From positions 1 through 12,765 of IMG/VR virus record IMGVR_UViG_2529292922_000012: a DNA stretch of 12,765 nucleotides, one strand, 5' to 3'. The DNA is from a virus. Its lineage: Duplodnaviria; Heunggongvirae; Uroviricota; Caudoviricetes. A model generated the notes under the pieces. It ran no database searches and was not told the origin of the DNA. It worked only from the letters and a program-made list of their open reading frames with translations. This document shows positions 1-12,765 of this stretch, one piece after another. The number at the start of each line of letters is the position of its first letter. The first letter of the stretch is position 1. The position numbers were made by a program, and so were the translations under genes.

Positions 1-274
1 GTCCCATTGACCGAATATTAAGATAATGACTTCCTGTTAACCACCCCTGTATGCTTAAGATGACCCTTCCCGCATCCACACCTCGCCCATCATCCCAACC
101 ACGGATAAACTCACCGCGTAAATCCGGTAATTTATTGGTGGGGTAGGCCTTTGCCAGTTTGGGATACATTTCAGAAGAAAATGCTGCACCATTGCATTTT
201 AGCCAGCCCGTTGGTGGTGTTTCTAAGGGCCACGGAACGGGCACACCAACAGGCAGTGCAGAGCCTTCCCCTAA
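1..274 (-). CDS. Tail-fibre C-terminal cassette, 5' part only (continues past the left window edge); no start codon of its own
   Basis: Minus-strand frame open from ~274 to position 1. Translation begins ...LGEGSALPVGVPVPWP...DDGRGVDAGR like the two downstream cassettes, then diverges. Antisense of track ORF 159..362. Confidence 0.6.
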
Positions 275-329
275 ACCAACGTTTTCATGCCGCCCTTACG
301 ATATAATTAAACGCAATGTTACGAGGACG
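69..329. repeat. Direct repeat copy A (~260 bp) spanning a cassette boundary
   Basis: Near-identical to 508..768 at a constant 439-bp offset, with scattered substitutions. Confidence 0.9.
266..291. other. Candidate invertase crossover site (cix/mix/hix-like), copy 1
   Basis: TTCCCCTAAACCAACGTTTTCATGCC. Shares the AAACC-AA-(C/G)GTTT core with recalled hixL (TTCTTGAAAACCAAGGTTTTTGATAA). Sits at the 5' end of a cassette. Confidence 0.5.
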
Positions 330-713
330 AATGGTTACATAATTAACCCCATCACCTCGTGAAGGCCCTGCAAATGAAAAACGGGAAAATCCTGGTTGGT
401 TAGAAACAATTTGGTCATAGTTATTGATTGAATGACCAGACCCAATGTCGAAATTACCTCCGTAATGAGAAAAACTTGTACCATCCTGCCCTGAAAGCAG
501 GGTACGTCCCGCATCAATCCCGCGCCCATCATCCCAGCCACGGATAAATTCACCGCGTAAATCCGGTAATTTATTGGTGGGGTAGGCTTTTGCCAGTTTG
601 GGATACATTTCAGAAGAAAATGCTGCACCATTGCATTTTAGCCAGCCCGTTGGTGGTGTTTCTAAGGGCCACGGAACGGGCACACCAACAGGCAGTGCAG
701 AGCCTTCCCCCAA
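285..713 (-). CDS. Tail-fibre C-terminal variable cassette (collar-like conserved N-part, variable tip, conserved ...RPRNIAFNYIVRAA end)
   Basis: Track ORF, 142 aa. N-terminal ~65 aa near-identical to cassette 724..1185. The 'M' is a TTG inside the crossover-like site; the frame stays open a few codons upstream, so it is probably a 3' gene segment fused to a constant 5' part after inversion. Confidence 0.75.
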   Translation of the reverse strand: MGEGSALPVGVPVPWPLETPPTGWLKCNGAAFSSEMYPKLAKAYPTNKLPDLRGEFIRGWDDGRGIDAGRTLLSGQDGTSFSHYGGNFDIGSGHSINNYDQIVSNQPGFSRFSFAGPSRGDGVNYVTIRPRNIAFNYIVRAA

Positions 714-768
714 ACCAACGTTTTTATGCCGCCCTTACGATATAATTAAAGGCAATATTACGAGGACG
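508..768. repeat. Direct repeat copy B (~260 bp)
   Basis: Aligns with 69..329 and, more divergently, with 982..1197. Confidence 0.9.
705..730. other. Candidate invertase crossover site, copy 2
   Basis: TTCCCCCAAACCAACGTTTTTATGCC. Imperfect dyad around a central AA, same orientation as copy 1. Confidence 0.55.
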
Positions 769-1185
769 GTTTTCATTAGCTGTTGGCACGACACGAGAGG
801 CGTCGAATCCAAGGTCATCGGTTTTGCCTATATCAGTTGTGTTATTCGGCATTCTCGCAGATCGTGTTCCTGCATCATAAAAAGCCCCTCTGATTGCATC
901 AAAAGACATGCCAATCCCGCCATCTGCGAACCCCTCAATATTTCTTATTGCATCCCCCTGTGAAGATAATAATTGTCGCCCGGCATCCACACCACGTCCG
1001 TCATCCCAGCCACGAATAAATTCACCGCGTAAATCCGGCAATTTATTAGTAGGGTAAGCCTTTGCCAGATTTGGGTACTTTTCAGAAGAAAATGCTGCTC
1101 CGTTACATTTCAGCCACCCCGTTGGCGGAGTGGCTGAGGGCCACGGAACAGGTACGCCAACGGGCAGTGCTGAGCCTTCCCCCAA
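724..1185 (-). CDS. Tail-fibre C-terminal variable cassette, proximal to the invertase gene
   Basis: Track ORF, 153 aa. Same conserved N-part (GEGSALPVGVPVPWP..TPPTGWLKCNGAAFSSE..AKAYPTNKLPDLRGEFIRGWDDGRG) and same C-terminal NIAFNYIVRAA as 285..713, with a different middle. Begins at TTG inside the crossover-like site. Confidence 0.75.
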   Translation of the reverse strand: MGEGSALPVGVPVPWPSATPPTGWLKCNGAAFSSEKYPNLAKAYPTNKLPDLRGEFIRGWDDGRGVDAGRQLLSSQGDAIRNIEGFADGGIGMSFDAIRGAFYDAGTRSARMPNNTTDIGKTDDLGFDASRVVPTANENRPRNIAFNYIVRAA

Positions 1186-1197
1186 ACCAACGTTTTA
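982..1197. repeat. Direct repeat copy C (~215 bp, more diverged; homology stops at the crossover-like site)
   Basis: Aligns with copies A and B from 'catcccagccacg' to 'caaaccaacgtttt', then diverges toward the invertase gene. Confidence 0.85.
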
Positions 1198-1203
1198 GTC
1201 TTA
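1178..1203. other. Candidate invertase crossover site, copy 3 (right boundary of the invertible region, ~55 bp upstream of the invertase start)
   Basis: TTCCCCCAAACCAACGTTTTAGTCTT. Repeat homology ends exactly here. Arrangement mirrors gixR-gin and cixR-cin. Confidence 0.55.
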
Positions 1204-1256
1204 ATCCCTACCTATACCAACGATGTATTTTTAACTAAACAAAGAGGTTGTTTTTC

Positions 1257-1829
1257 ATGCAAATTGGCTACATTCGTGTGTCAACAAATGACCAAAACAC
1301 AGATTTACAAAGAAATGCACTGAACTGCGCAGGATGTGAACTGATTTTTGAAGATAAAATAAGCGGAACAAAGTCAGCCAGACCAGGCTTGAAAAAGCTG
1401 CTCAGAACGTTATCAGAAGGAGATACGCTGGTTGTCTGGAAGCTGGATAGGCTTGGCAGAAGTATGAAACACCTTATCACGCTTATAGAGGAGTTGCGGG
1501 AAAAAGGTGTTAATTTCCGTAGTCTGACAGACAGTATTGACACATCAACACCCATGGGGCGTTTCTTTTTTCATGTCATGGGTGCTTTAGCAGAAATGGA
1601 ACGTGAATTAATTGTTGAGAGAACACTGGCCGGACTGGCAGCTGCACGCGAACAGGGACGCATTGGCGGACGTCGCCCGAAGTTGACAAAAGAACAACAT
1701 GAGCAAATAGCGAGGTTGATCGAAAATGGCTACAGCAGGAAACAGTTGGCAATTATTTACGATATCGGTGTATCGACGATTTATCGTTATCATCCTGTAG
1801 AGAAGCGCCAAACTCAATCTGAGCTGTAA
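1257..1829 (+). CDS. cin: Serine recombinase, Hin/Gin/Cin/Pin/Min-family DNA invertase
   Basis: MQIGYIRVSTNDQNTDLQ...VVWKLDRLGRSMKHL...SLTDSIDTSTPMGRFFFHVMGALAEMERELIVERT...GRIGGRRPKL plus C-terminal HTH: canonical invertase motifs with catalytic Ser in IGYIRVST. The track starts at an upstream TTG (1248); I chose the internal ATG, which gives the family-typical N-terminus. Symbol reflects P1-like context. Confidence 0.9.
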   Translation: MQIGYIRVSTNDQNTDLQRNALNCAGCELIFEDKISGTKSARPGLKKLLRTLSEGDTLVVWKLDRLGRSMKHLITLIEELREKGVNFRSLTDSIDTSTPMGRFFFHVMGALAEMERELIVERTLAGLAAAREQGRIGGRRPKLTKEQHEQIARLIENGYSRKQLAIIYDIGVSTIYRYHPVEKRQTQSEL

Positions 1830-1951
1830 TTCTAATGCCGCGTCGGTGTAATTTATCTTGATAGAATAGGTACATTTATCGCGCGGCACATCAATTCGAT
1901 GTATCTAGCGCCTGCTGACCGCTAATGAAAACTGTTCTCGAAATGTTGTCC

Positions 1952-1970
1952 CTAGTCCGAGACTAGGGTA
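1952..1970. repeat. Perfect 8-bp inverted repeat CCCTAGTC-cga-GACTAGGG in the intergenic region
   Basis: Seen directly. No U-tract on either side, so more likely a protein-binding dyad or RNA structure than an intrinsic terminator. Confidence 0.4.
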
Positions 1971-2264
1971 TCACCTCTGGAAAGCATACGCAGAACCTTT
2001 TTTAACCCAGGGTGCCCAGCTTTTTTGCTGCTCGCCTTATTCGCAAAAATTAGCTCACATCCTGCGCTTTCAAGTGCTTTTCACTGCATAGCTGTGTTTT
2101 GTTCATTTGTCTATATGCGTACATAGCCTATTAGCATATTTTCTGCCCACTATCGTTATTTATTGCAAGCTACAGGTTTTAATTAACAAAACCAGTGTGT
2201 GTGGAAATCACAAAGTGCATACCGTTCTCAAATGTTGTTCAACTTACTGTTGTATAGGTAAAAA

Positions 2265-2528
2265 ATGACATTTTATGTACATATCGTGATGTTATCCCTT
2301 CTTGGTGGGGTGTATTCGTATTTGAGTGGGCTATGTGAAAACCGTTACGAGTCTTCATGCAAGAAATTGCTGGCCGAATGTATTTCCGCCGTACTTGCTG
2401 GCTTTATTGGCATGTATCTCGCGGAATATAAGGACATGAATGAAAGCCTTCAGAGCTGCATGGTTCTTATTTTCAGCGCCAATAGCAGGCTTATTATTGA
2501 AGGTTCCAAAAGTCGGTTGAATAGGTAA
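2265..2528 (+). CDS. Hypothetical small protein with two hydrophobic segments
   Basis: Track ORF, 87 aa. Weak SD (AGGT ~9 nt upstream). Hydrophobic stretches IVMLSLLGGVYSYLSGL and ISAVLAGFIGMYLA. No recognised family. Confidence 0.3.
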   Translation: MTFYVHIVMLSLLGGVYSYLSGLCENRYESSCKKLLAECISAVLAGFIGMYLAEYKDMNESLQSCMVLIFSANSRLIIEGSKSRLNR

Positions 2529-2602
2529 GTCTCTTATGCAACATAACCGGTTGAGAAGTTACTTTGCATACCATTACCTCCTGACAACGTAGGAGGGAAC
2601 TT

Positions 2603-2932
2603 GTGCTTGACACACAGGAATTAGCTCCAGTTGCTATTGCGCTCCTGCTTTCAGTAATTGGTGGGATAGGCACGTTCCTGATGGATGTCCGAGACGGTCG
2701 CCAGTCTGGCAATTTGTTGGGATTGGTTACGGAGATCTTTGTTGCAGTGACAGCTGGCGCGGTGGCGTACCTATTGGGGCAACACGAGGGCTGGGAGTTA
2801 TCAATTACGTACTTAATGGTAACGATAGCCAGCAATAACGGTCATGAGGTGATTTCAGGGATGAAACGAGTGAATATCGATAGCATTCTGAATGTTCTTA
2901 CAAGTTTGGTGAAAAAGGGAGGCGGGAAATGA
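2603..2932 (+). CDS. lydA: Holin-like small membrane protein; LydA-like first gene of the lysis/dar operon
   Basis: Strong SD AGGAGGG 6 nt before GTG start. 109 aa with 2-3 predicted TM segments and a charged C-terminus (KKGGGK), which is holin architecture. Position after cin matches my recollection of P1. Confidence 0.55.
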   Translation: MLDTQELAPVAIALLLSVIGGIGTFLMDVRDGRQSGNLLGLVTEIFVAVTAGAVAYLLGQHEGWELSITYLMVTIASNNGHEVISGMKRVNIDSILNVLTSLVKKGGGK

Positions 2933-3372
2933 TTGGCTGGGGTGTATGCGTTCTTGCGTTAGCCTTAGCCGATCGCTATTTGCTAAAACGCAAGGACATC
3001 ACGCATTTAGAACTTGGTGATGTGGAAATTAAACCGGGTTTCATCCGGGTGCCGTTCAAATACCGGTCTAAATTCCCGTTTTTGCGCGGCGCAACGGTCA
3101 GATATTGGATCCGCGATGTTCAGAAGCCGACGACAGTGATTGAAGGCGAACAACGTTGTTTGACGTCGGCTGAACAGGGCGAAAACAGTGAATGGTTGTA
3201 CATACCCACTGAATATATGGGTAAAGGAGAGCGACTGTGGCATTTCAACGTCATGGTTACGCATGGCGACTCGTTCATTAACCCGTTGTATCGGATTTTC
3301 CCTGTTACTCAGCAAATCCGCAGAAGTTACGTAATAAATCTCGCACAGGATGTGTCAGATGACGAAAAATAA
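2929..3372 (+). CDS. lydB: LydB-like protein (putative holin antagonist) with N-terminal hydrophobic segment
   Basis: ATGA overlap with the preceding stop. SD GGGAGG. 147 aa. Named by synteny only. Confidence 0.45.
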   Translation: MIGWGVCVLALALADRYLLKRKDITHLELGDVEIKPGFIRVPFKYRSKFPFLRGATVRYWIRDVQKPTTVIEGEQRCLTSAEQGENSEWLYIPTEYMGKGERLWHFNVMVTHGDSFINPLYRIFPVTQQIRRSYVINLAQDVSDDEK

Positions 3373-3961
3373 GTATGCAACGGTCGATTTTGACCAGGTT
3401 AATGAAAAGGGGCTGAAATCCCTTATCGCGGCGATCAATAAAACCGGTGTTACGGTAATTGAGGTTGACTCCAGCAACCGCGCAACAACGAAAGATGGCG
3501 TTAAAGTTAAAACCGCAAAGCTGGTTCTTAACGACGGACAAATTCTTGCCATACAGGTAAACGATACTGGCGATATATCGTCTGTGAGGCTGAATGGAAA
3601 AGCTATTCCTAACGCTCAGTCGCCGGATATCAAGACGCTTGGTACCGTCATGGGGCAAGCGGCCCGCAAAAACTCCGCAAAATTCCAGAAATCACTGATC
3701 GCCAAAGCGAAACGTGTTGCCAATCCGGTAGACAAGAAACCGGCAGTAAAATCCAACTTTCAGCGCCTGCAAGAGGCAAAACAGCGGAATGCTCAGGTGG
3801 TTGCCGCTTATAAATCAGCGCAGAACTCGGTGTCTTTCAATCAACAGCAGATCACTGATTTGCGGGCGAAGCTGGATAAGGAGACAGGCCGACTCAATAA
3901 CGAAAAGGCCCGAAATGGCGAACTCAAACGCCGTCTTAAGCAACTGAAAGCAGGAAATTAA
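3359..3961 (+). CDS. hdf: Hdf-like protein (homologue of a DarA fragment), coiled-coil C-terminus
   Basis: Shares a segment with the next protein (..ARKNSAKFQKSLIAKAK.. versus ..AEKNSAKFQRAQKKKKA..), also visible at DNA level. Start ambiguous: 3350 or 3359; overlaps the lydB 3' end. Confidence 0.6.
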   Translation: MTKNKYATVDFDQVNEKGLKSLIAAINKTGVTVIEVDSSNRATTKDGVKVKTAKLVLNDGQILAIQVNDTGDISSVRLNGKAIPNAQSPDIKTLGTVMGQAARKNSAKFQKSLIAKAKRVANPVDKKPAVKSNFQRLQEAKQRNAQVVAAYKSAQNSVSFNQQQITDLRAKLDKETGRLNNEKARNGELKRRLKQLKAGN

Positions 3962-3962
3962 C

Positions 3963-5882
3963 ATGGAACAGTTCAATATCAATAAAGGGGTGACGATCAA
4001 GCCTGGGCTTGACGTGCTTCCCCCGCCAGTGACTGATGATGAATATCGCGCATTAATGGCCGGTGAGGACCGCTATCTGATGACGGAATCCAACACCCTG
4101 GAGGAAATCGAGGCTACGTTCTTCTATGACACGCCGATCCACTGGTGTGCTACGGATTTACTGGAGGCGATTAGTTCTACTCGTTTGCAGTTACACCGGA
4201 CCATGCAGGCATTTGTCCGGGCATTGAACCAGAAGCTGAATGGTACCGGAATCTCTGCGGGGAGTGATAAAACGGGGGATGTGGCCCAGAGCGGCGCGCG
4301 CGCGATCGGCGGTGCTGAAATTGGCCGGGCACGTAACGTTAACGGGCTGCCGGTCCTGCCAGCCATTATTCCGCTCAGTGATGGTCAGACTATCAGCATT
4401 CTGTTTCATAGCCCGACAGCGGAAAACCGGATCACCAATAGCGATACGCTGGTTGCTTTCCAGTTCTTACTGAATAAAAAAGACGTTACTCACACCGTTG
4501 CTCCGATGAGTGGACGTGATATGACGCTGGCGCAGGTCACCATGAAACTTGCCAACCTTGCAGAGAAAAACTCGGCAAAATTTCAGCGTGCGCAGAAGAA
4601 GAAAAAAGCCCTTGTTGATGAAATAACCCAACTACAGGCTGACAGTGACCAGAAAGAGGATGCCATGAGCGACCTCGTGGATCAGGTGGCAGCGGTAGAA
4701 GGGCAGAAGGTAGATCTGGAGCAGAAAATTAACGCTGTTGCATCGGAAGCGGATTCTCTTTATGAAGAGAATGAGCGTTTGCAGACGGAGATTGATCAGC
4801 TCAATCGCACTGGTGGGCGCGATACCATTGCTCCTGCGGGGATGACTGGTGGACACTCTCGCGCGATGACGGATCGCCTTGCCAGTATCAAAAATCGTAT
4901 GCATATGAACGGGGAAGTGACGCTCAGTAATGGTGCATCAATGAAGCAATTCATTGAGGACGGCGAAGGGTATATCCAGTTAACCGATTCGGATGGCAGC
5001 GTGTACATGATCAAGGCTAAATCCATACAGGGTGTGGACATGGCAGATGCGATCGGCAAGCTGTTTAAAGCCTATAAAGCGGGTAATGTATCGGAATACC
5101 TGGTCCAACCAGAAGAACATAAACCGGAAAACGTCGAACCTGAACCAGCGGAGGATACCGGTAGCTCTTCGCCTGAACCAGAAGTCTCTGTAGGTGCATA
5201 TCGATATGCCCTGCAAATGCGTCCGGCGGCCCCTGGCGCAATACCTGAAGGTAACAAAGCAATTCTGCCGCGCCCTGATGAAGGTGACCCGTATTATGAA
5301 TATGCACGCTACGGCATTGCTACTTACGATACCCCGCTTTCTGATCAGCAAATGAGTGAGTACGACCTGAAGTTATTGCCTCGCGAGGATTCTTTCGACT
5401 TCCTGGCGAAGACACTTACTAATGGTCCGTTTGGCAAATATGCACAAAAAGCTCTGGAGCTGGCCACCAGCTCACCAGACGAGTTCCGCGTAATGCTGAA
5501 AACTCAGTTTCAAAAAACTTTCCCCAATATTGCGTTTCCGGGGGGCGCTGGCACCGAGAAAATGGTGCAGAGCATGATCAATGCATTGCAGGCCGAAGTC
5601 GGTGAGATTACTCAGCCAGAACCTGCCCCGGCACAGCCTGATGAAACGGTTAGCGAAGCAGATGCAGAGGCTAATAAAGCCATTGAATATCTCAATAACG
5701 TGATGGATATGCAAAGCACTGACATGGCGGAGATCCGTAACGCCCGGGGTAATGTCCGGGAAGCGATTGCAGCCCTTCAGGCTGCCGGGCGTTTTGAGGA
5801 AAACGAAGAGCTGGTTAATGGCGCTGCTCGCCACTTGGCTGATCTGCTGGTAGCAATCCAGAAAGCGGGGGTAGCGGCATGA
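3963..5882 (+). CDS. darA: DarA-like anti-restriction / head-internal protein
   Basis: 639 aa. ATG 2 nt after the hdf stop, with SD AGGAA. Central coiled coil, Pro/Glu-rich linker. Named from size, position and paralogy with hdf. Confidence 0.6.
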   Translation: MEQFNINKGVTIKPGLDVLPPPVTDDEYRALMAGEDRYLMTESNTLEEIEATFFYDTPIHWCATDLLEAISSTRLQLHRTMQAFVRALNQKLNGTGISAGSDKTGDVAQSGARAIGGAEIGRARNVNGLPVLPAIIPLSDGQTISILFHSPTAENRITNSDTLVAFQFLLNKKDVTHTVAPMSGRDMTLAQVTMKLANLAEKNSAKFQRAQKKKKALVDEITQLQADSDQKEDAMSDLVDQVAAVEGQKVDLEQKINAVASEADSLYEENERLQTEIDQLNRTGGRDTIAPAGMTGGHSRAMTDRLASIKNRMHMNGEVTLSNGASMKQFIEDGEGYIQLTDSDGSVYMIKAKSIQGVDMADAIGKLFKAYKAGNVSEYLVQPEEHKPENVEPEPAEDTGSSSPEPEVSVGAYRYALQMRPAAPGAIPEGNKAILPRPDEGDPYYEYARYGIATYDTPLSDQQMSEYDLKLLPREDSFDFLAKTLTNGPFGKYAQKALELATSSPDEFRVMLKTQFQKTFPNIAFPGGAGTEKMVQSMINALQAEVGEITQPEPAPAQPDETVSEADAEANKAIEYLNNVMDMQSTDMAEIRNARGNVREAIAALQAAGRFEENEELVNGAARHLADLLVAIQKAGVAA

Positions 5883-6244
5883 CACTATCAGCTATTGAGT
5901 TAATGGATCTCAGCGATAAGTTGGATGCTTTGATGTCCAAAGCGGCTACCGCGAGTGGCATGGAGTTGCTGGATATCAGCGATGAAATTGACCAGATCAT
6001 GCAACAGATGGGGTACGGTGTGTCCGGCGGCAGTAGTGGCGAGGAAAAACAACCTTCGGTACATGATGGTGTGCCAAAACTGGTTGCTGATTTCCTGGCT
6101 GATAAATTCGTCGATCAGAGCACCGATGCATTTATCGGTACCTTGCAGGATTTGAGTCAATATGTTGGCACATACATCGACCTGGACCAGGTTAAACAGC
6201 ACACGGCGGCATGGATAGCCGCCAACATTAAAGAGGCAGCATAA
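5879..6244 (+). CDS. ddrA: DdrA-like small acidic protein
   Basis: ATGA overlap with the darA stop. 121 aa. Named by synteny. Confidence 0.5.
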   Translation: MTLSAIELMDLSDKLDALMSKAATASGMELLDISDEIDQIMQQMGYGVSGGSSGEEKQPSVHDGVPKLVADFLADKFVDQSTDAFIGTLQDLSQYVGTYIDLDQVKQHTAAWIAANIKEAA

Positions 6245-6256
6245 GGCGTAACAGGG

Positions 6257-9244
6257 ATGAGCTTAAGCGATCAGGTGGTAATGGCCACCAGCATAGAAAC
6301 GCTGATCGAGCTGCTAAAGAACCTGCCCGATTATGGGCGGGTTTCGTATGTGGTGACAGCGAAGGGAGACGAGGTAAAAACAGCGTTTGATATCGTCGAT
6401 GCCTCAGCTCTTTTGGTATCCAATACTCTGGATGGGAAAATTAATCCTGACTATCCCCAGGAACTTCAGCCGCGCGACCGGACCCGCGCATCCAGCCTTC
6501 TTCAGGTTAACCAGATATCCAAAGATTTGCGGCCTGCTCAGCTTACTGATTCCGGTTTATCCAGCCATGGTGCGCCGATAATTGGTGAGGACAATGCCGT
6601 TGAGTCTGGTAATGGACGGACCATGGGGATCATCAAAGCCTATCAGGACGGCAATGCGGATCGGTATCGTGAGTACCTGATTGATCATGCGACCGAATTC
6701 GGCATACGACCTGAAAAGGTTGAATCAATGACGGCTCCGGTACTGGTGCGCCGCCGGTTAACCAAGGTTGACCGCGTTCAGTTTGCCAAGGACTCAAATA
6801 TTTCTGATCTTCAGGAAATGGCAGCCAGTGAAAAGGCTTTTGTTGATGCCGACAGCATAACACCGGCGATGATGGCGCTTTTTAACCCGTCAGAAAGCGG
6901 AGATCTGCTTAGCCGCAGTAATGACGCGTTTATTCGCGGATTTATGACGCAAGTTGGTGCCACACAGGCGGCTGGCCTTGTAACGGAAGATGGGCGACCA
7001 ACGCGGCAACTTGTTGACCGTATACAAAACGCGATCTTTGCCAAGGCATATAAGGATGCGCGCCTGGTAAGGATGGTTGCAGAAGAACCTGATCCGGATA
7101 TGCGTAATGTTCTGACGGCGCTTAATGCGGCAGCCAATGATTTTGTCCAGATGCAGGCTTTATCAGGAGAAGCGCACAAGCAGGCTGTGACAACTATTGT
7201 TGATGGCATTGAGACAGCGGATAGCCTCGATAAAAAGGCGCTGGCGGCATTGAAAGATGCGGTAGACCTGGTAAGGCAATCGAAGGAGTCAGGCCAGCAT
7301 ATTACCGATGTTATTGCTCAGGGGGATATGTTCAGCGAAACGGCCCCGGAAGTGAAAGCACTCGCGTTGTTCATCGTCGCGAATAACCGTAGCGCGAAGC
7401 GTATGGCCACCGCCTTTAAGTTGATGGCTCAACGTATCAATGATGAGTTACAGCACCAGGGCCAGGCGCTGGGGGATATGTTTGGCGGTGGTGATGTGTC
7501 GTTACAGGATATCCTTCGCCAGGTGTCTCAGGAACTGGAAAACGAAGGCATGCAAGGGATATCCGGCGGTCTTTTCGAGTCCGTTTCCGGCGGTAGTTAC
7601 AATGGTGTTGCTCCATATACCAGTTTGCTATTACATCGGGCATCCGGCATCAAAGACATTATTCATCTGATCAGGCTGCTTTCCCGTACAGATCCCCAGG
7701 ATGAACAGCTTGTACAAGTGCTTGCGCATTTTGTTCGAATGCCTGTTGCCGACGTGAAAAAATGGTGCCGATTATTCGGTATCAGCAATTCGTTACTTCG
7801 CGGCTTGTTAAATCACGCATCCTCCCTTGGGCGCGATGGCTTTGACGAGATAGCGCAGGCGATAAAAAACGGAGATATGCCACCAGCTATTGACTGGTTT
7901 TCCATTCGCCCAACCAGGGTGAAAGCATTCCTTAGCGCGGCGCATTCGGCATCACCATTGGCAGAAATGGTTCAGAGGTTGTCGCTCATATTCACAGACC
8001 ATACCGCGTTGGGTGATCTGACTCTGGACGAGATGAAAGAAGCCTCCATTCAGTGGGCCGATCAACAAAATGAGGTTAACTCTGACTTCTTGCCAGCATT
8101 CAGGAAGGCCGTTAGTAAAGCGGATGATGCCCGTGGAATTCTGAGGGCATTTAAGGCATTGCAAAGTCAGGTTAATAAACATGTCGGTGATATCGATGGG
8201 GTAACGGCGGAAGGCAGGGATATCCTTAAAGAGCACGGCATAACGCCAGAGTTTATTGATGAGATCAGGACTGATATGCAGCGTGAGGTCGTATCGTCCC
8301 TGCAAATCGTAGCCAGAGCGTTGGCGGATGCTAATCCGAAGAGTGCGGCCATTGTTAACCGTGTTATTGGTGATATTGAAGCATCGGAGGGCATGGGGGC
8401 GCTGAAACTCTTCCTTTCGCGAGCGTTTAATCCTAACGGCAATATTCTCCCCGGCATTATTGGTGAGGCTAAAAAGTATGTCAGCGAAGAAGAACTTGAG
8501 CAGCTTGACCAACTACTTAAGCGATTCTCATATAACCCGCAGACACGCTGGCAAATGAATCAGCGAAGTATGGGTTCGGTCCACGAGAAAGTGTTATCTG
8601 CCATGAACAGTGCGATCGCAAACTCATCCGTATCTGAAGAAAAAGCTCTTGAGTGGGCCGACTCTTTTATCACGGAAGAAGTGGAAGAAGCCCGCGCTGG
8701 ACAGAATGGTGGGATAGACCTGCGCAAGGAACTTGCTGATATTTATCGCCTGACCGGCGGGAAAATATCGACATTATCAAAGGTAGTTCACCACCAGGGA
8801 AGGGCATATGCAAATCTTAATGGTGTTGTTGCTGTCAATTTGAACGATGAAAATGCAAGTGCACTGTGGCACGAGCTGGGTCATCATCTTGAGTACAGTA
8901 ACCCTGGTTTGTTAGAGAAAGCCCGGTCATTCCTGAAGGCCAATGTTGAAGGGGATAAGCCATCTTTCGTCAATATCGGTGGGCGTGGCAAGCCTGAATG
9001 GTGCTTCAGATCTCGATTGAGTAATATTTATATGGCGAAGGTATACCCGCCAGCCTCAGTAAGTAACACCGGGAAAATTCGGCAGAAATCACCGACTATT
9101 TCCAAAACGTCAGCAACGGAAGTATTCTCTATGGCTCTTCAGTTGTATCATGACAAAGAGGCCGCTGCCGCATCACTGATGAATGGTGACGGATTGCTGG
9201 AACTGTTATTAGGTGTGGCAAAGGAGCTAAATAATGCAGATTAA
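6257..9244 (+). CDS. ddrB: DdrB-like large protein: ParB/Srx-like N-terminal signature plus C-terminal HExxH (zincin-like) motif
   Basis: 995 aa. ELQPRDR...GAPIIGEDNAVESGNGRTMGI resembles ParB boxes (QPR / GxxR). HELGHH at aa 872-877 (nt 8870-8887). Long helical middle. Confidence 0.6.
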   Translation: MSLSDQVVMATSIETLIELLKNLPDYGRVSYVVTAKGDEVKTAFDIVDASALLVSNTLDGKINPDYPQELQPRDRTRASSLLQVNQISKDLRPAQLTDSGLSSHGAPIIGEDNAVESGNGRTMGIIKAYQDGNADRYREYLIDHATEFGIRPEKVESMTAPVLVRRRLTKVDRVQFAKDSNISDLQEMAASEKAFVDADSITPAMMALFNPSESGDLLSRSNDAFIRGFMTQVGATQAAGLVTEDGRPTRQLVDRIQNAIFAKAYKDARLVRMVAEEPDPDMRNVLTALNAAANDFVQMQALSGEAHKQAVTTIVDGIETADSLDKKALAALKDAVDLVRQSKESGQHITDVIAQGDMFSETAPEVKALALFIVANNRSAKRMATAFKLMAQRINDELQHQGQALGDMFGGGDVSLQDILRQVSQELENEGMQGISGGLFESVSGGSYNGVAPYTSLLLHRASGIKDIIHLIRLLSRTDPQDEQLVQVLAHFVRMPVADVKKWCRLFGISNSLLRGLLNHASSLGRDGFDEIAQAIKNGDMPPAIDWFSIRPTRVKAFLSAAHSASPLAEMVQRLSLIFTDHTALGDLTLDEMKEASIQWADQQNEVNSDFLPAFRKAVSKADDARGILRAFKALQSQVNKHVGDIDGVTAEGRDILKEHGITPEFIDEIRTDMQREVVSSLQIVARALADANPKSAAIVNRVIGDIEASEGMGALKLFLSRAFNPNGNILPGIIGEAKKYVSEEELEQLDQLLKRFSYNPQTRWQMNQRSMGSVHEKVLSAMNSAIANSSVSEEKALEWADSFITEEVEEARAGQNGGIDLRKELADIYRLTGGKISTLSKVVHHQGRAYANLNGVVAVNLNDENASALWHELGHHLEYSNPGLLEKARSFLKANVEGDKPSFVNIGGRGKPEWCFRSRLSNIYMAKVYPPASVSNTGKIRQKSPTISKTSATEVFSMALQLYHDKEAAAASLMNGDGLLELLLGVAKELNNAD

Positions 9245-9545
9245 AATCGCAGCGCCATTAGGCGGAGATGCCATTATCGAATTTGATGATAATGAAGAAG
9301 TTTCCGGGCGTTTAAGCATTATCTCCGGTGACATTACCGAGGACATGATCGCTGAAGCCATAGCTGGGGCAAATCCCAATAGCTATATGGGATTCGTTAA
9401 CACCCTTGATGCTCCCGCAAGTGATGTTCTCCGAACGCTGCATCTTTACGCTGGCTGGTTTGTTGATTGGCCAGCAGTAGATGGTGGCGATGAGGACGAC
9501 GACGACGATGATTTTGGTGATCATGTAGACCAGATCGTATATTGA
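9234..9545 (+). CDS. Small protein with highly acidic C-terminus, translationally coupled to ddrB
   Basis: ATG overlaps the ddrB 3' end. SD AAGGAG 7 nt upstream. 103 aa ending DGGDEDDDDDDFGDHVDQIVY. Last gene before the terminator. Confidence 0.55.
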   Translation: MQIKIAAPLGGDAIIEFDDNEEVSGRLSIISGDITEDMIAEAIAGANPNSYMGFVNTLDAPASDVLRTLHLYAGWFVDWPAVDGGDEDDDDDDFGDHVDQIVY

Positions 9546-9574
9546 AGAAATCCCGCCAATTGGCGGGATTTTTA
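9546..9574. terminator. Bidirectional rho-independent terminator between convergent genes
   Basis: AAATCCCGCC-aatt-GGCGGGATTT 10-bp GC-rich stem followed by a T-run on the + strand and ATTTCTTC on the - strand. Lies exactly between the stops at 9545 and 9577. Confidence 0.7.
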
Positions 9575-9576
9575 CC

Positions 9577-10663
9577 TCACGAGAAACTCTTTTCTGATGT
9601 CAGCCAACAGTGCTCGTGCATATCTCTTGGTGGTTTTTCGACAAATGCCTCTTCAGCCACATCCTGCCAGGGGATTTGTTTAGCCCATTCAGTTATAGCG
9701 TTATGGTTTGCCGAGAATAACGGTATTGTATAGGCCTTCAGCCAGTCTAATGTGCTGGAGTTGTGTTTTTGAGCGTGATGTTTCGCATGGTGTTTGGCGA
9801 TCACGATCGTAGGCACTACCCATTTACTACCGTCAGTCATTGTGAAGTGCATATTACGGGGAACAGATGACTTTTCCATCAACTCCCGAATCCCGGGGAA
9901 TTTCCCCAAGATCAATCGGCGATATTCATCGCTATTGCGTCCACCAAACTCTTTGGCTTTGAATTCAAGATATGCTTCAGAAACGAGAGGTGAATCCTCT
10001 GTGTTTAGAGTTATCGCCGTGAAAAAACCAGCAGGATTGTTTTTACTATGGGCCAACCGGTGATGCGAATCATAAAAGTACCCTTTCTCGCGTTCCGATG
10101 GTTTCGACAGCAACAGCAGGCGCGAGTCATAATTGGTTAAATTGCCAGTTATCACTGCATGAGCGCGATCGCTGATTTCCGCCGAGTTAATAACGATGAA
10201 AAGATCGTGCGGTCCAGTAAAACCAGCCAGAGACTCTTCGTTATTCAGACAATAGGTTATATAGACGCATCCCCATGTTTCACTGATATGCACCAACCCT
10301 TTGTCAGGGTGTATTCTGAAATAATTGCCAAGAAAAGGGTGTTTTTGGGTAACTCGCTCCCAATAACGGAACATATAGTCAATTATTGTTTTTCGACTAT
10401 CGTTAATCGCAGGAGAAACAACCACTGTACGGGAACACGAATACAGTATTGTTTGCAGGATGCTAATCACTGCCACAATAGAGGTTTCCCCAATACCATG
10501 TGGTGTGGTGGCAGTGACTTTGGCTCCGGTGTTCTTTATCGCGTTAATAATTTTTGCTTGATGAGGTGTTAACTCAATATCAAGCAACTCTTTTGCTGCC
10601 AGTTCCCAATTGTCTTTATACCGTTCTATCAGTGCTAACCAGGCAGATTCATTCTGTATACGA

Positions 10664-10671
<8 letters not shown>
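9577..10671 (-). CDS. Terminase-large-subunit-like P-loop ATPase-domain protein with degenerate Walker A/B; no nuclease domain apparent
   Basis: Track ORF, 364 aa, GTG start with SD GAGGTGG. Motif order PHQ...TTPHGIGETS...DLFIVINSAE...LLLLSKPSE resembles the adenine-Q / Walker A / Walker B / C-motif layout of terminase ATPases as I recall it. His-rich patch AKHHAKHHAQKH. Confidence 0.5.
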
Positions 10672-12764
<2,093 letters not shown>

Positions 12765-12765
12765 G

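Follow-up and report, generated by a model that had tools for sequence, protein, structure and literature searches.

What might a phage-plasmid do with a second large terminase from which the residues for ATP hydrolysis and DNA cleavage have gone? The question is raised by a gene in the IMG/VR virus record IMGVR_UViG_2529292922_000012, of which the whole stretch analyzed here (12,765 nucleotides, positions 1 to 12,765; hereafter the window) comes from a P1-like phage-plasmid of the genus Punavirus. The gene lies on the minus strand at 9577-10671, and it and its product are called the PHROG 5902 gene and protein below, after the protein family that they match. Few phage proteins are as well conserved as large terminase subunits (TerL), which a number of bacterial immune sensors target directly. 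A copy that keeps the shape of a TerL ATPase domain and lacks its catalytic residues would work by binding, and with about even confidence we regard the PHROG 5902 protein as a mimic of the terminase PacB that has an accessory role in conflicts.

A PacB paralogue without catalytic motifs

The PHROG 5902 protein is a paralogue of PacB with the fold of a TerL ATPase domain, in which the catalytic residues are lost. Across residues 11-289 it is about 30-35% identical to PacB of P1, and tblastn comparisons with PacB give 34-38% identity over 260-280 residues, the P1-type and D6-type PacB being about equally distant; a short degenerate relative used as tblastn query matched P1 PacB at 43% identity. 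A filter-only hidden Markov model (HMM) search of 1.8 billion representative proteins (E up to 1e-3) retrieved 1210 relatives, mostly of ~470-570 residues, nearly all of which align to residues ~4-260 of the query, and the top full-length matches are PacB-type proteins (E 1e-61 and weaker). In a rough neighbour-joining tree, the clade of dead proteins to which it belongs (dead denoting the loss of the catalytic motifs) stands beside the PacB clade. The AlphaFold2 model, built from 48 sequences, has a mean predicted local distance difference test score (pLDDT) of 80.7 and exceeds 90 over residues 10-190, which is most of the N-terminal domain. The best Foldseek matches of this model in the PDB are all TerL proteins, namely Sf6 gp2 (E 1e-9), HK97, the P74-26 ATPase domain (template modelling score 0.68), T4 gp17 and D6E, and the search also retrieves the Avs3-bound terminase of PhiV-1 (8dgc_E). 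The top 50 structure matches in BFVD are TerLs or unnamed entries, the named ones being almost all large terminases. An earlier note on the window had recognized the motif order of a large terminase in this gene, and profile, structure and alignment agree in assigning residues 1-262 to the TerL ATPase fold.

That note had also placed the Walker motifs, and alignment to P1 PacB and to 116 canonical relatives bears the assignment out. When the top HMM matches are aligned to the query profile, 116 of them read SGHGTGK[ST] and hhhhDEASG, and a small set that includes the PHROG 5902 protein has neither motif. In P1 PacB (494 residues) the two motifs are TSGHGTGKSD and LLYIIDEASG, and the acidic motifs usual for a nuclease domain are present; at the two Walker positions the PHROG 5902 protein reads TPHGIGETS and FIVINSAE. 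In Walker A (GIGETS), E62 occupies a column in which Lys is 100% conserved among the 116 relatives and in the alignment with P1 PacB, and in Walker B (VINSAE), I161 and N162 occupy the columns of Asp (89%) and Glu (97%). Also lost are the Ser-Gly-His of the P-loop, His152, the Ala-Ser-Gly after Walker B and the Thr of the C-motif; R194 is the sole ATP-contacting residue conserved in the canonical relatives that is kept. Structural positions have fared differently: Q38, G59, G61, G150, P191, G197, F199, S227-P228, Y250, G256, F258 and P259 are retained, as are the motifs LAG150, GYFYDSHH, EDSPL and YRxxxLGxFP. Within the dead clade the Lys position is occupied by E, R, H, Q, M, T, I or C and the Asp-Glu position by IN, VD, MD, TE, LH and others. 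The earlier note had left the choice between a divergent or degenerate packaging ATPase and a terminase-derived protein recruited for another role; this free variation at the lost catalytic positions fits the second better, the protein being specifically a PacB paralogue.

Judged as a working TerL, the protein has the additional-strand, catalytic-glutamate (ASCE) ATPase-domain fold and lacks the Gly-Lys-Ser/Thr of Walker A, the hhhhDE of Walker B, a nuclease domain with catalytic acids and an adjacent small-terminase gene in a late packaging operon; it belongs to the PacB sequence family regardless of activity. It shares with PacB the ATPase-domain fold, the N-terminal helices, Q38 and the motifs LAG, GYFYDSHH, S/EDSPL and YRxxxLGxFP. 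PacB is an essential protein of 494 residues with a full nuclease domain, encoded behind pacA in a late operon, whereas the PHROG 5902 protein has 364 residues, follows isaA in the ssb operon, is dispensable and has lost the catalytic residues.

The family itself has gone largely unremarked. The PHROG 5902 profile matches the protein from end to end (E 8e-187; residues 1-364 against profile positions 1-359 of 359) and carries no assigned function, and the large terminase profile, PHROG 2, matches residues 22-260 weakly (E 3.6e-9). Searches of Pfam, NCBIfam, PADLOC and PDB sequences returned nothing usable, and literature searches turned up no publication on the protein or on terminase paralogues that are dead. 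In GenBank entries for P1-like phages it is called either 'terminase large subunit' or 'hypothetical protein'. Under the former label, MH422554.1 and MH445380.1 look like genomes with two large terminases. The name is wrong and misleading as a statement of function, because the protein is without catalytic residues and the real terminase is PacA/PacB, the canonical enzyme of this phage family, which is encoded elsewhere in the genome, outside the window.

A reduced C-terminal module

The part that follows the ATPase-fold domain, residues 263-364, is probably what is left of the PacB nuclease domain after collapse and loss of the catalytic acids. A profile of these residues aligns to PacB 263-478 with an hhalign probability of 97-98% (E 1e-11 to 1e-13), the alignment being shallow (effective number of sequences, Neff, 2.1) and very gappy, with roughly 115 residues removed in several large deletions. 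The positions of the catalytic Asp residues are replaced: VDV has become PTIV, DGDG is lost and SPDHWD reads PRDMHE. The module is modelled by AlphaFold2 with a pLDDT of only 50-70. It is nearly invariant between alleles whose N-terminal domains differ by ~50%, with nonsynonymous divergence (dN) of 0.008 against 0.415 in the N-terminal domain. The earlier view that the gene has no room for a nuclease domain thus stands insofar as there is no working domain; the domain appears to have been reduced to a 102-residue remnant and is not entirely absent.

Distribution and selection

The PHROG 5902 gene is patchily distributed. In PLSDB it occurs on 120 plasmids of about 95 kb, in 119 cases covering 80% or more of its length, compared with 336 plasmids that carry isaA and 594 that carry pacB. 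MH422554 and vB_EcoM-813R1 are examples of natural carriers. The plasmids with the gene belong to Escherichia, Salmonella, Klebsiella and Shigella, and a scan of genome contigs added little host range beyond the enterobacteria. Both laboratory type phages are without it: in P1 (NC_005856, 21569-24132) IS1 and an unrelated isaB follow isaA, and in D6 (MF356679, 87113-88119) the isaA homologue is followed directly by pdcA/doc/phd. This may be the reason why the gene has never been studied. The possibility that IsaB of P1 is a remnant of the PHROG 5902 protein was rejected (BLASTP E 0.057).

The gene is under purifying selection and is neither decaying nor a chance open reading frame. Pairwise Nei-Gojobori ratios of nonsynonymous to synonymous divergence (dN/dS) between alleles are 0.1-0.35, with one pair at 0.54, and are alike in the N-terminal domain and the C-terminal module; the frame is intact across ~50% amino-acid divergence. 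The window allele differs by 3 nucleotides (2 residues) from the allele in an intact operon (locus L020). A comparison of two D6-like elements, L005 and L017, reveals where the divergence lies. Their neighbouring proteins are 94-100% identical, IsaA 95.7% and PacB 98.6% over the part compared, and the flanking aligned DNA is 91-98% identical, yet the dead paralogues are only 64% identical and have no DNA match over the first ~140 codons (L005 6223-6643), while their last 102 codons are nearly identical. The N-terminal half of the dead paralogue is the sole strongly divergent segment between these near-identical elements. The differences in IsaA cluster in its acidic C-terminal tail, at the junction, so that this tail varies with the swapped segment.

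Operon context and expression

In intact relatives, ssb, isaA (264 residues) and the PHROG 5902 gene lie on one strand and the convergent hxr comes next. The GTG start sits inside the last isaA codons (GAAAGTGATTAA) and is preceded by GGTGGA, and this overlap of isaA stop and PHROG 5902 start is conserved in 39 loci of P1-like and D6-like elements. Overlap and GGTGGA together suggest translational coupling to isaA. The gene had been described as standing alone, which is true of the window only in that an IS100-family insertion sequence (IS) has cut isaA at 10811; in the intact relatives it is physically joined to its upstream neighbour. Neither a separate nuclease-domain gene nor a small-terminase gene, either of which had been envisaged nearby, is found beside it there, the neighbours being ssb, isaA and hxr. 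A reading of IsaA as a degenerate PacA, which would make the couple a duplicated pacA-pacB pair, was rejected on an hhalign probability of 1.3%. In P1, isaA is non-essential and pacA and pacB are essential (PMC10695390).

The P1 annotation places a C1 operator and a promoter in front of ssb-isaA, and a consensus scan of the coding strand of an intact relative found no terminator-like or promoter-like site between ssb and isaA. From these two observations we infer that the PHROG 5902 gene would be expressed early, under control of the C1 repressor and together with ssb-isaA. In the window, the IS100 element separates it from the remaining isaA, from ssb and from the ssb promoter. BLAST matches to IS100 had seemed to begin 11-17 nucleotides inside isaA, which is due to partial flank similarity; direct alignment sets the end of the IS at 10811. 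A consensus scan of the coding strand between the gene and the IS found no sigma-70-like promoter, and an independent promoter is thus unsupported. The junction of IS100 and isaA is absent from all PLSDB plasmids searched, which makes the insertion look like a recent event particular to this element. The window copy is intact but, with its operon cut by IS100, probably silent or mis-expressed.

On the opposite side, a perfect 12-bp stem occupies the space between the convergent ends of hxr and the PHROG 5902 gene. Strong folding is predicted for this hairpin on each strand (-19.8 and -21.2 kcal/mol, z -5.1 and -4.5), and it is thus likely a bidirectional terminator of the two genes; a consensus terminator scan did not report it.

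Other dead paralogues

The pairing with isaA extends beyond P1-like elements. In D6-like phage-plasmids of E. coli, Salmonella and Shigella, an isaA homologue (48% identity) is followed directly by a homologue of the PHROG 5902 gene (52% identity), and the pair sits elsewhere in the genome, after a dUTPase gene and before doc/phd. Over the 39 loci in which the pairing holds, four Walker A variants occur (GIGETS, GIGRPQ, GIGHKS and GIGQKT). Other dead, nuclease-less paralogues have ~250-270 residues or other C-termini. Three of them have no adjacent isaA: one follows a gene for a Ref-like RecA-filament endonuclease (L085), one, with the C-terminal module, follows a DnaB-like helicase gene (L035), and one of 444 residues has a different C-terminal extension (L087). 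A fourth, of 267 residues and from a different phage lineage, is encoded between baseplate-wedge and tail-protein genes (L004), and a normal PacB-family TerL is found ~3.4 kb upstream on the same contig. Its identity to the TerL of its own contig is 39%, against 27% to the P1-type dead protein, a difference that hints at a separate origin. In the neighbour-joining tree, the P1- and D6-associated dead proteins form one clade beside PacB and another pair is placed elsewhere among the canonical terminases, hinting that dead TerL paralogues arose more than once. Matches of ~260 residues in P1-like contigs, which had been candidates for second dead paralogues, were rejected because most are PacB itself. 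PADLOC defence models gave no match for the PHROG 5902 protein, IsaA or four other dead paralogues.

Among the canonical PacB-family terminases, many of those from Moraxellaceae (Acinetobacter and Psychrobacter prophages; P0033, P0040, P0156 and others) carry an intein with Hint and LAGLIDADG domains, which is located N-terminal to the ATPase core, at the P-loop or immediately before it.

Possible functions

Judging by the lost residues, the PHROG 5902 protein would be unable to hydrolyse ATP or to cut DNA and would work by binding. The reading introduced above, to which we give about an even chance, is that of a PacB-derived pseudo-terminase acting as a binding-only mimic of PacB in an accessory, conflict-type role. 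Expression from the C1-repressed ssb promoter would yield it along with IsaA at an early stage of lytic growth, and as a structural mimic it would occupy something that normally recognizes the PacB ATPase domain. The patchy distribution, the absence from both laboratory phages and the hypervariable N-terminal half beside an unchanged resident PacB argue for such an accessory role, and the same three features argue against a matched regulator or a housekeeping step in the packaging of the phage itself. The leading guess for what is occupied is a host sensor of the terminase ATPase domain (Avs1-3, Upx), against which the protein might serve as decoy or shield; the close second is a packaging partner of a rival element (PacA, the portal or the PacB ring), which might be poisoned or titrated.

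Several points weigh against the mimic. Its early expression is deduced from the P1 annotation and from consensus scans only. IsaA, its presumed companion, has no match in Pfam, the PDB (profile search included) or PADLOC and no recognizable family or fold, and its AlphaFold2 model (pLDDT 47) is unusable. The case for a nuclease vestige is drawn from the shallow, gappy alignment mentioned above. A mimic that binds Avs or Upx might trigger the sensor rather than block it, and a packaging poison would have to leave the resident PacB unharmed, but the identity of the protein to P1-type and to D6-type PacB is about the same (34-38%). Other dead paralogues sit beside genes of DNA metabolism (Ref-like, DnaB-like helicase), which might indicate a function in replication or recombination instead of terminase mimicry, and the hypervariable N-terminal half could be a simple allele swap without selection.

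The specific versions of the mimic and the explanations that compete with it can be weighed on the same evidence. As a decoy, which we consider possible and put forward tentatively, the early dead protein would occupy the sensor without activating it and leave the late, real PacB undetected; in a variant, loss of the Walker residues would have allowed the protein itself to evade such sensors. The TerL ATPase domain by itself is enough to activate EcAvs2 and Upx, EcAvs2 making use of terminase-bound ATP plus a bridging ATP (PMC13601566), and the retrieval of the Avs3-bound terminase in the fold search, the place of the gene in an early operon, its hypervariable N-terminal half and its patchy occurrence in a known variable region beside the dar anti-restriction operon would all suit a decoy. 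However, Upx tolerates catalytic-site mutants and still responds to Walker B/nuclease double mutants, so that a dead mimic may trigger it (PMC13601566), and literature searches found neither a precedent for a terminase decoy nor a terminase-like anti-defence protein. The nearest described analogue, vs.8 of T4, is likewise a second, nuclease-less protein resembling the TerL ATPase in a phage with a normal terminase, but it keeps Walker A and B and activates rather than inhibits EcAvs2 (PMC13601566); it comes from the gp17 lineage, whereas the PHROG 5902 protein comes from that of PacB, and the two were compared by description only. Interference with packaging seems to us rather doubtful. Here a dead subunit would join or cap the PacB ring, or titrate PacA or the portal, and thereby block a competing P1-type or D6-type element or a satellite; that it delays the packaging of its own phage is a less likely variant. 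Ring ATPase motors are sensitive to inactive subunits, as seen with Walker mutants of TerL. The N-terminal helices and lid-region motifs common to the protein and PacB, the conserved C-terminal vestige and the small upstream gene that overlaps a TerL-like gene, mirroring pacA-pacB, are in line with such a poison, but its equal distance from own and rival PacB would make self-poisoning hard to avoid, its N-terminal half varies while the resident PacB is constant, IsaA is not PacA-like, and P1 and D6 package well without it. Satellites encode small proteins without enzymatic activity that block or redirect packaging by binding a component of the terminase, for example Ppi of Staphylococcus aureus pathogenicity islands (SaPI) and Rpp of phage-inducible chromosomal islands (PICI), both of which target the small subunit; the analogy with the PHROG 5902 protein might be a functional one, as Ppi and Rpp are not terminase homologues.

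The other explanations are less probable. A new role unrelated to terminase partners, for instance binding DNA or proteins alongside IsaA in early replication, recombination or repair, strikes us as unlikely; the neighbouring ssb (P1-like elements), dUTPase (D6-like elements), Ref-like endonuclease and DnaB-like helicase genes would suit it, but this evidence is gene neighbourhood alone, one lineage of dead paralogues sits among tail genes, and a hypervariable N-terminal half is unusual for a replication accessory factor. That the gene is a functionless, decaying relic of a duplicated pacB is very improbable. In favour of decay, every catalytic motif and most of the nuclease domain have been lost, P1 and D6 do without the gene, and in the window its operon is broken; against decay stand the low dN/dS over several allele pairs, the frame kept intact across the divergent alleles and in 119 of 120 plasmids, the start that still overlaps isaA in the 39 loci, and the conserved structural motifs. 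Least probable of all is a packaging ATPase that remains active with non-canonical residues. The window allele has an intact fold and retains T63, S64 and R194, and E165 lies just after the Walker B strand, but the dead clade shows no conservation at the Lys, Asp and Glu positions, no catalytic residue of the nuclease is left, and the phage family has the canonical and essential PacA/PacB elsewhere.

A dead terminase copy that is under selection and widespread among natural phage-plasmids, P1-like ones in E. coli, Salmonella and Klebsiella and D6-like ones in E. coli and Salmonella, would be a new kind of phage pseudoenzyme. If the PacB mimic is a decoy or a packaging poison, it would offer a handle on the evasion of terminase sensing or on competition between related elements, and it would be relevant to P1-based transduction and to the spread of phage-plasmids that carry resistance. 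The 'terminase large subunit' label assigned by annotation pipelines can meanwhile mislead the annotation and typing of phages. A wider and, in our estimate, doubtful generalization is that phages repeatedly convert spare copies of their packaging motor into dead pseudo-terminases, fast-evolving conflict mimics that would blind Avs1-3 or Upx or jam the packaging of rivals with IsaA as co-factor, and that these went unnoticed because P1 and D6 lost the gene.

Other features of the window

The features of the window and of the dead paralogues at other loci are listed in the table below.

Table 1. Coordinates of features in the window and of dead paralogues at other loci.
Feature	Position	Strand	Remarks
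cin invertase	1248-1829		beside tail-fibre cassettes
hdf	3350-3961	+	downstream of lysis genes
darA	3963-5882	+	
ddrA	5879-6244	+	
ddrB	6257-9244	+	
hxr	9234-9545	+	converges on PHROG 5902 gene
Hairpin	9546-9573	both	between hxr end (9545) and PHROG 5902 gene end (9577); likely bidirectional terminator
PHROG 5902 gene, whole, 364 codons	9577-10671	-	GTG start 10669-10671, stop codon 9577-9579
C-terminal module, residues 263-364	9580-9885	-	from hhalign against PacB, dN and AlphaFold2; probable nuclease remnant
TerL/PacB-type ATPase-fold domain, residues 1-262	9886-10671	-	catalytic motifs lost; from AlphaFold2, Foldseek, HMM relatives and PacB identity
Walker B position FIVINSAE, residues 158-165	10177-10200	-	I161/N162 replace Asp-Glu; SAE replaces ASG
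Walker A position GIGETS, residues 59-64	10480-10497	-	E62 replaces invariant Lys; P-loop SGH reads TPH
isaA 3' remnant, last 48 codons and stop	10664-10810	-	stop 10664-10666 overlaps first PHROG 5902 codons
GGTGGA, Shine-Dalgarno-like site	10674-10679	-	upstream of the GTG start
IS100-family (IS21-like) element	10811-12765	+	interrupts isaA; left end TGTCACGAACGG at 10811, right end at or beyond window end
istA	10897-11919	+	IS21-like element
istB	11916-12698	+	IS21-like element
Dead paralogue, no adjacent isaA	L085 5998-6789		after Ref-like RecA-filament endonuclease gene
Dead paralogue with C-terminal module, no adjacent isaA	L035 5995-7083		after DnaB-like helicase gene
Dead paralogue, 444 residues, no adjacent isaA	L087 5989-7323		different C-terminal extension
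Dead TerL paralogue, 267 residues	L004 4621-5424		Logan contig SRR27278186_17808; between baseplate-wedge and tail-protein genes

The known variable region in which the PHROG 5902 gene adjoins the dar operon seems to start within the 3' end of hxr. After an acidic run (DGGDEDDDDDDFGD), the final ~20 residues of the Hxr protein (window 9480-9545) are matched in some relatives only, tblastn covering residues 1-82 in many loci and 1-103 in others, and this partial coverage of the C-terminus places the apparent beginning of the variable region inside the gene. DdrB (995 residues) contains a zinc-metallopeptidase-like motif, HELGHH, near residue 872 (window 8870-8887), which is noted in the P1 annotation. 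At the other end of the window, two alternative cassettes for the C-terminus of a tail fibre (285-713 and 724-1185, minus strand) adjoin cin. Their first ~30 and last 14 residues are nearly alike, and together with the neighbouring Cin invertase they are the invertible C-segment typical of P1.

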